Shown here one piece after another: positions 696-4,860 of a stretch of 64,000 nucleotides of DNA. A program made the position numbers and the translations under genes. Within the stretch, counting starts at the first letter, position 1. The number at the start of each line of letters is the position of its first letter. The notes beneath the pieces are model-generated. The model saw only the letters and a program-made list of their open reading frames with translations. It made no database searches and was not told where the DNA came from. This DNA is from Bacteroidales bacterium (GTDB lineage: Bacteria > Bacteroidota > Bacteroidia > Bacteroidales > UBA4181): assembly GCA_031275285.1 (NCBI GenBank), contig JAISOY010000211.1, positions 17,318 to 81,317 on the forward strand, in the 5' to 3' direction.

Positions 696-1463
696 CTACG
701 AACCAACAATACGATATACTTTCCCTGAAGCGTACCGGTCCGTTGCGATAATCGAAAAATGTTCTTTAAAAGGTTGAAAAGTAGAGAGGGCCAGTTCCGG
801 AGCATTATTCTCCTCGGAAAGATGGGAAAGTAATACCATCTGTAAATCGGGATGATGATGTGCTCTCAATAGTTCCAATGCCTGTAGGTTTGACAGGTGT
901 CCATGAGAAGAAGCGATCCTTTTTTTCAGGTAATAAGGGTATCGTCCCGTCCATAGTTTATCTTCATCATAATTACTCTCCAGGAAAAGGGCCTGGCATT
1001 GCCTGAAATGGCAGGACACATTTTCGCAGGCTTCACCGATATCTGTAAAAACCCCCACATTGATGTGTTGGTAATTGATCCTGAAACTACAGGGTTCGGC
1101 GGCATCATGCTTTTTCAGGAAGGTATATACCGTAAATGCATCTATTTCTATGGTATCGCCAGGATCGAAAAAAACAACATCCCCGGGGCGGTCACTGATG
1201 CCCGACCCCTGCCAGGTTCTTTCGGTCATGTATGCCCTGATGCCGTTTTTTTTACAGAATACCCTTGCCCCTTTGATATGATCGGTATGTTCATGTGAGA
1301 TAAAAACAGCCTTTATCTTTTCCGGGTTCAGGTTTTTCTGTTTCATCCGCTCCATGATGCGCAGGCAACTGATGCCGGCATCGATCAGGACGGCACTTTC
1401 TTCATTCCCGATATAGTAACAGTTACCGTTACTCCCCGATGCTATGGCACATATCTCTATCAT
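696..1463 (-). CDS. MBL-fold metallo-hydrolase
   Basis: 255-aa ORF with the HxHxDH metal motif (SHEHTDHIKG) and a YycJ-like N-terminus (ICAIASGSNGNCYYIG). It starts 4 nt after the stop of the upstream gene on the same strand. Confidence 0.85.
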   Translation of the reverse strand: MIEICAIASGSNGNCYYIGNEESAVLIDAGISCLRIMERMKQKNLNPEKIKAVFISHEHTDHIKGARVFCKKNGIRAYMTERTWQGSGISDRPGDVVFFDPGDTIEIDAFTVYTFLKKHDAAEPCSFRINYQHINVGVFTDIGEACENVSCHFRQCQALFLESNYDEDKLWTGRYPYYLKKRIASSHGHLSNLQALELLRAHHHPDLQMVLLSHLSEENNAPELALSTFQPFKEHFSIIATDRYASGKVYRIVGS

Positions 1464-1467
1464 GCGC

Positions 1468-3252
1468 CTATTGGTCCATTGCTTTTACCACGATCTGGGC
1501 GATGTCTTCCACCTGTTGTGTTCCTGCTCCTGCAAATGTCTTTTTGCATAACGGACAGGCGGTTACCAATATATCAGGATGTTCTTCAGTCAGTTTTTCC
1601 AGTGCGTCCCGGGCTATTTTCCTGCGTTGGTCGTTCGTCAGTACCGCGTTACCTACGCTTGCCCCGCAACAAAGCGATTTTTCCCGCTCATTAGGATTAC
1701 CCATCACATAAGCGACCTGGTACAATACCTGTCGTGGCGGCTGGTAGATACCTCCCGAATTACGGCCCAGGTCACAGGGGTCGTGGTATACGACCGATAG
1801 ACCGGTATGATTGACGGAGATTTTTCCCGTATCGAGTAATTGTTCGATATACTGGGTGTGGTGCATCACCGGTATCGGCAGGTCATATTCCTCATTGAAC
1901 ACTTTGAAGCAGATAGGGCACGATGTCACCAGTAGTTTAGCATTGGATTGCAGGATGATGTCCGTATTCTTCCGGATCAATACCGCTGCTGACTCTTCCT
2001 GTCCCAGTAGCATGACCGGACGGCCGCAGCAGATACCGCCTCCTTCATCCATCATCCGGTAATTGACGCCTGCTTTTTCAAAAATGGTACGCATGGCCTT
2101 TTCTATGCCGGGAGTAACATGACTCATGCAACCGGCAAAGTACAACACATCGGTCCGGATGGTTTCGGCCGGAGGAATATATTGGTATTGTTGCGGACTG
2201 TGGAAAGAACCGGAACGGCGGACATTCTGCTTCAGACGGCATGAATCGATACCCACAGGACAGGCATCTACACAACGTCCGCACATCAGGCATTGCTGTG
2301 CCGCCTCTTCAATATTCCCTTTTTCATCCCGAAGCATACGCATGAAGTAGACGGTTGTTTTCCTGTCGAGGTGTGCTGCTGAAGACATCTGGCAGGCATC
2401 GATACAGATACCGCAACGGGAACAGGAATATAACTCGATATTGCCATATCCCGCATTGGTCTTTCTACTCTTGATGCCGGCATTCCGTAATACGATGAGC
2501 AGTATTTCAGTAGGGATATGCATGAAACGTGAAAAGGGCAGTGCAAAGAAAAAAGCGCCTAAGGCAATGGAATAAGCCCACCACATCGGCCGGATCAGGG
2601 CTTCGTTATGGACGAATGATTCAAAGACCAGTCCAAATCCACGGGTAAGGAAGCTGCCGCCACTGATGCCGGAGGTAAAGCTTTCGGCCAGCAGGCGTAA
2701 TGGAAAGATGGCCCAAAGGGTGTAAACCGCTATCGAATCCCCGATTTTCAACTTGGTGGTACGCCGCATACCCATCAAACGTGAATTGATACGTTTGTAG
2801 ATCGCTAAACCAATCCCTGTGAGCACCATTAGAAGGAAAAAGTCCATGAGGAAGAACAACAGCGATCCCTTGAGCGTGGTTTCGGTTTCCATCATGAAAT
2901 AACGGAAGAAGATCGGGAAATAAGGCAGTTTGACCCTGTCCGGACAATATAACTGAACTTCAAGATGCCCCAGTATGATCAGCATGAACCACCCGAAAGC
3001 AATGCTCATGTGCATGTAACCCAGAACGGGGTTCCTTTTCCATATTTTTCTGTGGATCAGGCATTCGATGAAGATCTCTTTAATGGAAACAAATATCTTA
3101 CGACTGAAAATGCTTTTCCCTAGCTTTTTCCGGTCTTCGTAAGGCAGTTCTTTGACGGTTTTGATGATTCCTGCAAAAAGATAGATCAGGATATAGATAA
3201 ATCCGGCCATGAAAGGCAGGACAAAAGGATCATATATAAAACGTTCGCGCAT
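1468..3252 (-). CDS. Membrane-anchored HdrD/DsrK-like Fe-S oxidoreductase (polytopic N-terminal domain, 2x[4Fe-4S] and 2 CCG domains)
   Basis: The N-terminal ~300 aa are hydrophobic and multi-helix, with conserved His (GYMHMSIAFGWFMLIILGH, SRFMHIP). Two cluster motifs are present: CSRCGICIDAC and CLMCGRCVDACP. Two CCG domains are present: C..ICCG..SCPIC and C..LCCG..ACPLC. The ORF-track start at 3363 overlaps the upstream gene, so the ATG at 3252 (MRERF...) was chosen. Confidence 0.8.
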   Translation of the reverse strand: MRERFIYDPFVLPFMAGFIYILIYLFAGIIKTVKELPYEDRKKLGKSIFSRKIFVSIKEIFIECLIHRKIWKRNPVLGYMHMSIAFGWFMLIILGHLEVQLYCPDRVKLPYFPIFFRYFMMETETTLKGSLLFFLMDFFLLMVLTGIGLAIYKRINSRLMGMRRTTKLKIGDSIAVYTLWAIFPLRLLAESFTSGISGGSFLTRGFGLVFESFVHNEALIRPMWWAYSIALGAFFFALPFSRFMHIPTEILLIVLRNAGIKSRKTNAGYGNIELYSCSRCGICIDACQMSSAAHLDRKTTVYFMRMLRDEKGNIEEAAQQCLMCGRCVDACPVGIDSCRLKQNVRRSGSFHSPQQYQYIPPAETIRTDVLYFAGCMSHVTPGIEKAMRTIFEKAGVNYRMMDEGGGICCGRPVMLLGQEESAAVLIRKNTDIILQSNAKLLVTSCPICFKVFNEEYDLPIPVMHHTQYIEQLLDTGKISVNHTGLSVVYHDPCDLGRNSGGIYQPPRQVLYQVAYVMGNPNEREKSLCCGASVGNAVLTNDQRRKIARDALEKLTEEHPDILVTACPLCKKTFAGAGTQQVEDIAQIVVKAMDQ

Positions 3253-3257
3253 GTATG

Positions 3258-3599
3258 TTATGTTCGGGATAGGGGATGGGTGAATCGATGGATGGCCAGT
3301 ACTACATTGCGGGTGTTGACGCCTCTCGGACAAAGCATCTGGCATTTGCCGCAAAGCATGCACTTTTCAATATCTTCGTGGATTTTTTTGATCTGGCCAC
3401 GCATGACCATCAGTTGTGCCATCCGCAGGTTAAAATGAGTGAAATGGCCCGCAGAACAGGTGGCCATGCAGGTTCCACATCCGATACATATGGCGAAGGA
3501 TGGCTCAAAGCGAAGCACGAAAGCAGCCACATCCTTTGGTGTCTGGTCCAGGTCAATTTTCTGGCTTTGGTTGATGCTATATCCGAAATCCGGTTTCAT
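3258..3599 (-). CDS. HdrC-like 4Fe-4S dicluster ferredoxin-domain protein
   Basis: 113-aa ORF with two CxxCxxCxxxC motifs (CIGCGTCMATCS, CMLCGKCQMLCP). It lies between the HdrA-like and HdrD-like genes on the same strand. Confidence 0.8.
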   Translation of the reverse strand: MKPDFGYSINQSQKIDLDQTPKDVAAFVLRFEPSFAICIGCGTCMATCSAGHFTHFNLRMAQLMVMRGQIKKIHEDIEKCMLCGKCQMLCPRGVNTRNVVLAIHRFTHPLSRT

Positions 3600-3615
3600 C
3601 CTGTGTGATTCAAAA

Positions 3616-4644
3616 TTATTTTGGGGAAGACTTCAGGTATTCGGATATGGCAATAGCTGCTCCTCTGGCGTCGGCCATTGTTTCCGGAATAGTTTTCGGT
3701 CCTGTGCATGTCCCGGCAACAAATACCCCTTTCTGCCGGGTATAGTTGCTTTGCAAATATTCATCGCCTACATTCAGGAAACGGTCTTTACCGGTGGTAA
3801 TATCCAGCATACGTGCCAGTTCTTCTGTTTCATCGGGCGCTTCCATACCCGACATCAACACCACCAGGTCGACGGATATTTTTAATAATTTCCCCATTAA
3901 AGTATCTTCCGCTTTGATGGTGACCTGTCCGTCAATACTTTCGGCAGCTTCCGATAAGCGTCCGCGGACGAACATTACCCCGTATTTGGTCTGGGCTTCC
4001 AGGTACATATTTTCAAAATGACGGTCAAACATGCGCAGGTCCATGTAGAAGCAGTATACTTCCGCTTCGGGGTACATCTGTTTTATTTCACAAGCCTGTT
4101 TCACGGCCGTGGCACAACAGACCTTGGAGCAATGGCGGTTATTGACCTTTTCGTCACGGGAACCGACACAGTGAATGAACGCGACACGTTTGGGCTCTTT
4201 TCCCTTGCTGGTAGTTACCGGATTTCCGGATGCAAACATTTTCTCGAGGTCGGAAGACGTGATCACATTATCATAGATGCCATAGCCGTATTCTTCCTTT
4301 CGGTGGGCATCGAACAGCCGGAATCCTGTAGTCAGGAGCACTGATGATGCTGTGACTCCCTGTCCGTCGGACAACCAGATGCGGAAATTCCGTCCGTCCG
4401 GCTGAATATCGGCCACAGAGGTTCCGGTAAGTATTTTTACCGGTGTTTTTTCAACAGCAGCGACCAATTCTCCGGAAAGCAGCGCAGCGTTTCTTTGAAA
4501 AGGGAACAACCGGTCCCAGTTGGCAACATGGCCTCCCGGTTCTTTTTCTTTCTCAACAAGTATTACTTCATGTCCCATGTTAGAAAGCCGGGTGGCGGCT
4601 TCTATCCCTGCAATACCTGCACCTATAACGGCAACATCATACAT
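3616..4644 (-). CDS. HdrA-like FAD-dependent oxidoreductase (minimal HdrA/QmoA-type core)
   Basis: N-terminal dinucleotide fold MYDVAVIGAGIAGIEAA...LVEKE, and the HdrA-type cluster signature CVGSRDEKVNNRHCSKVCC. Confidence 0.8.
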   Translation of the reverse strand: MYDVAVIGAGIAGIEAATRLSNMGHEVILVEKEKEPGGHVANWDRLFPFQRNAALLSGELVAAVEKTPVKILTGTSVADIQPDGRNFRIWLSDGQGVTASSVLLTTGFRLFDAHRKEEYGYGIYDNVITSSDLEKMFASGNPVTTSKGKEPKRVAFIHCVGSRDEKVNNRHCSKVCCATAVKQACEIKQMYPEAEVYCFYMDLRMFDRHFENMYLEAQTKYGVMFVRGRLSEAAESIDGQVTIKAEDTLMGKLLKISVDLVVLMSGMEAPDETEELARMLDITTGKDRFLNVGDEYLQSNYTRQKGVFVAGTCTGPKTIPETMADARGAAIAISEYLKSSPK

Positions 4645-4848
4645 TTGTCAAAATTTTAAACGACTCCTTTAAAACCCACATCAGCATAACTGGTGGTTAC
4701 CTATCATCCTGAAAAAATACAGCATCCGGCAATTTTTCGGAGGTCTTTTTGTCATACTTAAATGATAAAAATCAGGTTCAAAAATAGTGAAATAATAATT
4801 TCCCTTCAAACTTTAACAATAAAATGTTAGCAATGCCTTTGAAAATCT

Positions 4849-4856
4849 TACATTTG
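4849..4856 (+). promoter_or_regulatory. Candidate Bacteroidota -7 box (TACATTTG) for folK
   Basis: Exact TAnnTTTG match ending 4 nt before the folK ATG. No well-spaced -33 TTTG was seen. Confidence 0.35.
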
Positions 4857-4860
4857 CATC

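Follow-up and report, generated by a model that had tools for sequence, protein, structure and literature searches.

Two types of sulfur-oxidising heterodisulfide reductase-like (sHdr) systems have been described. Type I is encoded by shdrC1B1AHC2B2 and type II by shdrC1B1AHB3-etfAB-emo, and neither occurs without LbpA and sulfur transferases (Tanabe et al. 2024, PMC11094781). The sHdr enzyme oxidises sulfane sulfur to sulfite, and in type II the electrons are proposed to be carried to menaquinone by EtfAB and EMO (PMC11094781). Here we analyse a set of Hdr-like genes encoded in a 64,000-nucleotide stretch (the window) of contig JAISOY010000211.1 from Bacteroidales bacterium GCA_031275285.1. 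In most Bacteroidales these genes belong to a cluster of five, and the closest known system to this cluster is type II sHdr. Literature searches on Hdr-like complexes in Bacteroidales, and on a link between Hdr and sulfonolipids, returned no description of the five-gene system. A first-pass annotation, made from the letters of the window, had likewise named no function for such a set, and the searches found none described in this order. Cluster look-ups returned only the names "Fe-S oxidoreductase" or "(Fe-S)-binding protein".

The reading that we favour, with a probability of about 0.6, is that three adjacent genes of the window encode the flavoprotein, the connector ferredoxin and the membrane subunit of a five-subunit Hdr-like complex of anaerobic Bacteroidales, which probably exchanges electrons with the quinone pool of the membrane. 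The complex would act as a menaquinone-linked thiol or sulfane-sulfur oxidoreductase, with electrons flowing towards the quinone. The features of the locus are as follows:

3616..4644, minus strand: HdrA-like flavoprotein gene (hdrA), 342 amino acids (open reading frame [ORF] map and NCBIfam)
3258..3599, minus strand: small HdrC-like ferredoxin gene (fdx), 113 amino acids (ORF map, Pfam and NCBIfam)
1468..3252, minus strand: membrane fusion gene, 594 amino acids from the ATG of MRERF (ORF map and Pfam)
696..1463, minus strand: metallo-β-lactamase (MBL)-fold metallo-hydrolase gene, 255 amino acids, with an SHEHTDH motif (Pfam)
4645..4860, no strand: AT-rich spacer of 216 bp between hdrA and the divergent folK (ORF map and sequence)

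The ORF map and the sequence bore out the first-pass description of four packed genes on the minus strand, with intergenic gaps of 16, 5 and 4 nt. The longest frame of the fusion gene (1468..3363) opens upstream, at a GTG. The identities given to the four products also held, namely a minimal HdrA, a 113-residue HdrC-like protein with two [4Fe-4S] clusters, a 594-residue fusion of a membrane domain with a two-cluster module and two CCG domains, and an MBL-fold protein; the matches are detailed below.

HdrA matched the NCBIfam HdrA core (NF040770) with an E-value of 2.7e-84, the match falling in two stretches, and its score of 283.8 bits is far below the cut-off of 1100 of the NCBIfam HdrA2 equivalog. 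It consists of the core only, without the N-terminal and ferredoxin domains of methanogen HdrA. A full-length alignment was obtained with sHdrA of Hyphomicrobium denitrificans (6tjr_A, 349 amino acids), in which residues 3-336 pair with residues 3-339 (E 5e-64). The methanogen HdrA chains (640-670 amino acids) align in two stretches and skip their inserted ferredoxin domain, and their core is the best sequence match of HdrA (251 bits). Cys159, Cys172, Cys176 and Cys177, which belong to the CVGSRD...CSKVCC motif picked out by the first-pass annotation, are invariant in 39 sequences. Judged by its sequence, HdrA shares the short form (~340-350 amino acids, with flavin adenine dinucleotide [FAD] and one [4Fe-4S] cluster) of the sHdrA of sulfur oxidisers.

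The small ferredoxin, which has a helical, HdrC-like fold, gave matches to the dicluster families Fer4_7, Fer4_8 and Fer4_17 and to HdrC (TIGR03290, E 2.2e-9). Its eight cysteines, at positions 38, 41, 44, 48, 80, 83, 86 and 90, have an HdrC-like spacing and are invariant in 28 sequences. In the loci compared, its gene is invariably found with hdrA on one side and the membrane gene on the other. Two loci from Prevotellaceae/Bacteroidales metagenome-assembled genomes (MAGs) carry ~1.3 kb of extra DNA that splits hdrA from the ferredoxin gene (L012, 4552-5896; L041, 4573-5896). In the MAG EPI_MAG_00140 two copies of the fusion gene were observed (L005, 2645-6558, and L031), and in one of them an ORF of 576 amino acids, instead of hdrA, precedes the ferredoxin gene.

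The fusion protein contains two CCG stretches, which scored 93.7 bits against PF02754 (cut-off 20.6), and one Fer4 dicluster. Its parts are a five-helix cytochrome-b domain of the NarI/EMO type, a domain holding a pair of cubane [4Fe-4S] clusters, plus two complete CCG motifs. In the AlphaFold2 model (pLDDT 90.7, pTM 0.86) five long membrane helices are seen, with short connecting helices after the first. When the model was compared with known structures by Foldseek, the top match was Mycobacterium smegmatis EtfD (9ojn), over the whole chain (742 columns, E 2.4e-20, TM-score 0.69), whereas HdrB chains matched over the CCG part only. A profile of 38 homologues of the fusion also matched EtfD (9ojn_A) with an E-value of 3.4e-33. 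The first-pass suspicion of a cytochrome-b-type anchor is thereby upheld, both in the fold and in a conserved pair of histidines. In the 38 homologues, 18 cysteines are invariant, and so are H67, H81 and H245 of the membrane domain, as well as Y227 and F234. The cubane cysteines (277, 280, 283, 287, 321, 324, 327 and 331) and all ten CCG cysteines (375, 408, 409, 445 and 448 in one motif, and 493, 528, 529, 566 and 569 in the other) are conserved in this set. These findings establish the fold and the cofactor-binding residues of the membrane subunit. By their complement of cysteines, both non-cubane sites are fully liganded, like those of catalytic HdrB/HdrD and unlike those of EtfD/EMO.

EtfD holds one haem b through H78 and H241, and its menaquinone is flanked by F85 and F230 (PMC13083937). 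In the EMO of Syntrophus aciditrophicus (SaEMO), a preprint assigns a proximal haem bP to H87/H251 and a distal twin haem to H233 (10.64898/2026.08.18.745454). In the hidden Markov model (HMM) alignment, H245, F234 and Y227 of the fusion correspond to EtfD H241, F230 and H223; the spacing pairs H81 with H78 and W88 with F85. That the haem ligands are equivalent was drawn from this alignment together with spacing, invariance and the fold match. The fusion would thus retain the proximal-haem histidine pair of EtfD/EMO, as H81/H245, and is predicted to bind haem there. It probably has one proximal haem and a quinone site on the cytoplasm side. A distal haem is not predicted, because the invariant Tyr227 replaces the histidine; therefore the fusion is unlikely to form an energy-coupled transmembrane redox loop of the kind found in SaEMO or HdrDE.

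The conservation of the gene set was analysed in two collections of loci. The close set comprises 42 loci that hold a relative of the fusion gene, mostly from uncultured Bacteroidales of termite guts and other habitats, and hdrA, the small ferredoxin gene and the fusion gene are adjacent and in the same order in 39 of them. For the diverse set, 17-kb neighbourhoods were taken from 40 carriers and their proteins clustered, and 39 loci from ~35 families of the order were counted. Here the trio is the end of a five-gene block, hdrC1 (~235 amino acids)-hdrB1 (~356 amino acids)-hdrA-fdx (~110 amino acids)-membrane fusion, whose order is kept in ~30 of the 39 loci. The first-pass reading of the genes as an operon for a membrane-anchored HdrA/HdrC/HdrD-like set therefore stands as to the kind of complex but falls short of its extent, since the conserved unit has five genes, with HdrC1-like and HdrB1-like members preceding hdrA. 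The first three genes of the window are strictly co-conserved, and they form the 3' part of the five-gene cluster in most Bacteroidales. The composition of the complex and its conservation are thus established.

The HdrC1-like protein matched NF041779 (E 2.5e-27), and the HdrB1-like protein matched NF041780 (E 1.9e-40) as well as Pfam CCG; the alignment of HdrB1 with methanogen HdrB spans the whole protein. In the HdrB1 of this genome the C-terminal CCG motif is intact (C181, C221, C222, C261 and C264). A full-length fusion gene was found in 137 of the 401 genomes of the order sample, distributed over 98 of 236 genera. In a phylum-wide sample (401 genomes), only two genomes besides this one gave a full-length fusion match, and all other matches were to the CCG part only. 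Many Bacteroidota outside the Bacteroidales encode proteins of ~670 amino acids that match just the CCG half of the fusion (residues 362-590); judging from these partial matches, they may represent a different family of membrane CCG oxidoreductases.

In the genome analysed here the five genes are split into the trio and the hdrC1-hdrB1 pair. The upstream neighbour of hdrA is folK and not hdrB1; beyond the 216-bp spacer, folK and then secDF run divergently from hdrA, and the spacer occupies the place where hdrC1-hdrB1 would stand in most Bacteroidales. The promoter that drives the three remaining genes is presumably in this spacer. A scan for sigma-70-type promoters and for terminators revealed sites that were no commoner than in shuffled sequences, Bacteroidota promoters being outside the model used in the scan. 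The hdrC1-hdrB1 pair was located on a separate contig, C214 (22117-23922), and its products are 82% (HdrB1) and 67% (HdrC1) identical to those of the intact cluster of a family relative. The nearest relatives, whose fusion proteins are 82-88% identical, also have folK beside hdrA (L001, L006 and L007 among them), and three of the five near relatives holding the trio have hdrC1B1 on another contig at 82-90% identity. Since the folK-hdrA arrangement recurs and hdrC1B1 is unlinked in relatives too, the split onto two contigs is real, is common to the lineage, and both halves have been retained in several of its members. This split copy is a less typical example of the system; it shows that both halves can persist without linkage. 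Just one further genome of the genus is in the sample (93% complete); hdrA, hdrB1 and the fusion gene all went unmatched in it. Just upstream of hdrC1-hdrB1 on C214 (19000-24000; L098, 5072-9932) there is an HTH_17 gene, a gene for a 195-amino acid protein assigned to no family and a DUF5712 gene. These surroundings look like a mobile-element remnant, and may be related to the splitting of the operon.

The likeness to type II sHdr comprises the hdrC1-hdrB1-hdrA gene order, the short HdrA of the sHdrA type, and an EMO-type membrane protein encoded in the cluster, the fusion being a structural homologue of EtfD/EMO. The differences are in the remaining parts. The Bacteroidales clusters are without sHdrH, sHdrB3 and etfAB, and no ETF or sHdrB3-like genes were found within or beside the 39 clusters. 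They have in addition an HdrC-like ferredoxin of 110 amino acids between hdrA and the membrane gene. Here the N-terminal CCG motif of HdrB1 is degenerate, and both CCG motifs of the membrane fusion are complete. The hosts are not sulfur oxidisers but Bacteroidales that ferment and respire fumarate. Given the shared C1-B1-A order, the short HdrA and the EMO-type anchor, a mode of working like that of type II sHdr can be proposed, yet the cluster did not come out as a type II member. Type I is more distant: relatives of this genome have the C1-B1-A order, but there is no sHdrH and there are no separate C2 and B2 subunits, the ferredoxin and the fusion following instead; in this genome, moreover, C1B1 is unlinked.

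With EtfD of M. smegmatis and with EMO the fusion shares a single chain in which a five-helix NarI-like domain is joined to two cubane clusters and a CCG/non-cubane domain, together with the proximal-haem histidine pair and the whole-chain fold. It differs from them in sequence, the identity being only 17%, and in its partner, which is the HdrA/ferredoxin module and not EtfAB; etfAB is adjacent in none of the loci. The fusion has both CCG motifs in full, whereas EtfD and EMO have an altered distal cluster. The fusion also has an invariant tyrosine for the distal-haem histidine, and the disordered C-terminal tail of EtfD is missing from it.

The other Hdr-type complexes share fewer features. 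HdrDE of Methanosarcina has in common a cytochrome-b anchor and an HdrC+HdrB-like module with two complete CCG motifs, but here these parts are fused in one chain, HdrA, HdrC1, HdrB1 and ferredoxin subunits are added, and scores stay below the NCBIfam HdrB and HdrC equivalog cut-offs. Bacteroidales use menaquinone, not methanophenazine, and are not known to make coenzyme M (CoM) or coenzyme B (CoB). QmoABC of sulfate reducers resembles the present complex in that a short HdrA-like flavoprotein (QmoA) is connected with a cytochrome-b/FeS subunit in the membrane and with the menaquinone pool. The Bacteroidales complex differs from it in having HdrB1 and HdrC1 and no QmoB, in carrying CCG domains on the membrane subunit, which QmoC lacks, and in having no apr or sat genes nearby. 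Methanogen HdrABC differs in that its HdrA has ~650 amino acids, with N-terminal, inserted-ferredoxin and C-terminal-ferredoxin domains, against the 342-residue core found here, and HdrB1 is without the two complete CCG motifs (ten cysteines).

On the reading that we favour, a non-cubane cluster of the CCG type would be the site of a cytoplasmic two-electron reaction of a thiol or sulfane sulfur, and this cluster would belong to HdrB1 or to the fusion's own complete CCG pair. Electrons would pass to the FAD/[4Fe-4S] centre of HdrA, then to the small ferredoxin and on to the fusion protein, inside which they would run through the cubane clusters and the single proximal haem b (His81/His245) to menaquinone at the cytoplasm-side site. 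The menaquinol would then feed fumarate respiration. In this scheme the complex would work much as type II sHdr does, except that the HdrA/ferredoxin module would dock directly on the EMO-like anchor and so take the place of the ETF step.

Four observations weigh against this scheme. The transmembrane stretch of the EtfD HMM alignment is not significant alone (score -5.3). The N-terminal CCG motif of HdrB1 has three of its five cysteines (C28, C62 and C100); residues 61 and 103 are serines in place of the other two, and of these serines S103 recurs in at least 95% of 37 sequences whereas S61 is not conserved. LbpA, TusA, DsrE and rhodanese were not among the 25 commonest Pfam/NCBIfam families of the 123 proteins flanking the 39 clusters, a survey of flanks and not a genome-wide search. 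Finally, two of the five near relatives holding the trio gave no hdrB1 match, the completeness of both genomes being unknown, so that the trio might work without C1B1.

Bacteroidales is a dominant order among gut, rumen, termite-gut and sediment anaerobes, and about one third of the sampled Bacteroidales genomes carry the complex. If it does link cytoplasmic thiol or sulfane-sulfur chemistry to menaquinone, it would constitute an unrecognised entry or exit point in the anaerobic respiratory chain. Furthermore, the complex brings together parts that are known separately (the core of sHdr, the anchor of EMO and a free connector like HdrC), and so lends itself naturally to testing how domains with non-cubane clusters dock their flavoprotein partners.

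A more specific version of this scheme, possible but on the unlikely side, is that the complex is an anaerobic sHdr-like sulfane-sulfur oxidase that produces sulfite, with menaquinone as acceptor, chiefly to feed cysteate synthase and the sulfonolipids. Cysteate feeds sulfonolipids, which act on host immunity, and if sulfite is made, the complex could explain the source of sulfite for cysteate synthase in strict anaerobes. In 4 of the 39 diverse loci the next gene downstream of the fusion, in the same orientation, encodes a cysteate synthase (TIGR03844, 442.6 bits; cut-off 324.9). In two of the 39, from related genomes that are complete or near-complete, a gene for a cysteine-dioxygenase-like cupin of 182 amino acids (CDO_I match) is inserted in the cluster between hdrB1 and hdrA (L078, 6084-6632, and the same position in L079). 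Both arrangements would suit such an oxidase, as would the sulfane sulfur-to-sulfite chemistry known for sHdr (PMC11094781).

The distribution of the genes across the order points the same way, although feebly. Within the order sample, 44 of the 137 Hdr-positive genomes encode cysteate synthase, as do 54 of the 264 Hdr-negative ones (odds ratio 1.8, kinship ignored). CysH is encoded by 263 of the 401 genomes. Hdr or CysH is present in 90 of the 98 genomes with cysteate synthase, within which the two are negatively associated (odds ratio 0.28, kinship again ignored). Against this version, 93 of the 137 Hdr-positive genomes are without cysteate synthase, and LbpA and sulfur transferases are missing from the commonest flanking families of the 39 loci. 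This genome has its own route as well: cysH-cysN-cysD lies beside ABC-transporter genes on contig C35 (L103, 8328-11318), and cysteate synthase is encoded on contig C167 (L102, 8403-9698), which is without Hdr genes. With cysDNH and cysteate synthase, the bacterium is probably able to turn sulfate into sulfite and to put this sulfite into cysteate. As the associations are weak and ignore kinship, and this genome has cysDNH and an unlinked cysteate synthase, we take the supply of sulfite as a hint and not as a finding.

The proposal can be widened to an unrecognised, sHdr-like anaerobic pathway that would turn reduced sulfur into sulfite in Bacteroidales of gut and sediment, working without a lipoate-binding protein or oxygen, delivering electrons to menaquinone and fumarate, and providing sulfite for cysteate and sulfonolipids and perhaps for other uses; we hold it to be doubtful. 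Three narrower ideas were discarded. A tight general coupling to cysteate synthase is at odds with the odds ratio of 1.8 and with the carriers lacking that enzyme. The idea that the complex is a source of sulfite only where CysH is missing fails for this genome, where cysDNH is present, and a weak trend that way exists within the genomes with cysteate synthase. A link to lipoate was dropped too: three flanking matches to BPL_LplA_LipB are BirA biotin ligases according to NCBIfam.

The next alternative, which appears distinctly unlikely to us, is that the complex works reductively or bifurcates electrons. The FAD of HdrA would split or merge electrons between two branches, one to menaquinone through the fusion and the other, of low potential, via the small ferredoxin to ferredoxin or flavodoxin of the cell. 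Reduction of a disulfide would occur at the fusion's complete CCG pair, in the manner of HdrDE or HdrABC. The retention of all ten CCG cysteines of catalytic HdrB/HdrD, as opposed to the altered distal cluster of EtfD/EMO, is consistent with this, and so is the position of the small ferredoxin, which stands where methanogen HdrA carries its own ferredoxin domains. The methanogen HdrA core being the best match of HdrA argues in the same direction. However, no role in bifurcation is established for sHdrA, whose short architecture is the same, the flanks of the 39 loci encode no candidate carrier of a disulfide (DsrC-like, or for CoM/CoB), and Tyr227, in place of the distal-haem histidine, disfavours an energy-coupled redox loop.

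It is highly improbable that the MBL hydrolase, in a four-gene operon, processes a thiol or thioester product of the complex: its gene lies on the same strand as the fusion gene, starts 4 nt past the fusion stop and is separated from it by no detected terminator-like site, but a homologue follows the cluster in 0 of the 42 close and 0 of the 39 diverse loci, and the gene downstream of the fusion differs every time, even among the relatives 82-88% identical. The partnership proposed by the first-pass annotation is rejected on these grounds, and the co-conservation it had expected of four genes applies to the hdrA/ferredoxin/fusion trio, in the close and the diverse loci alike, and not to the MBL gene, which, absent from all 81, is not part of the system. 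The protein matched Lactamase_B and Lactamase_B_2 in Pfam, which are generic MBL families, and no NCBIfam family above its cut-off; the sole match in the PDB, 7l0b, is weak (E 4e-4). The gene is a chance downstream neighbour that may be co-transcribed here.

In 7-8 of the 39 diverse loci a HisKA_3 sensor kinase and a LuxR/NarL-type response regulator adjoin the cluster (L073, L074, L075, L082, L085, L088 and L089). The presence of this HisKA_3/NarL pair beside the Hdr-like genes suggests that in some lineages the cluster is under dedicated regulation.

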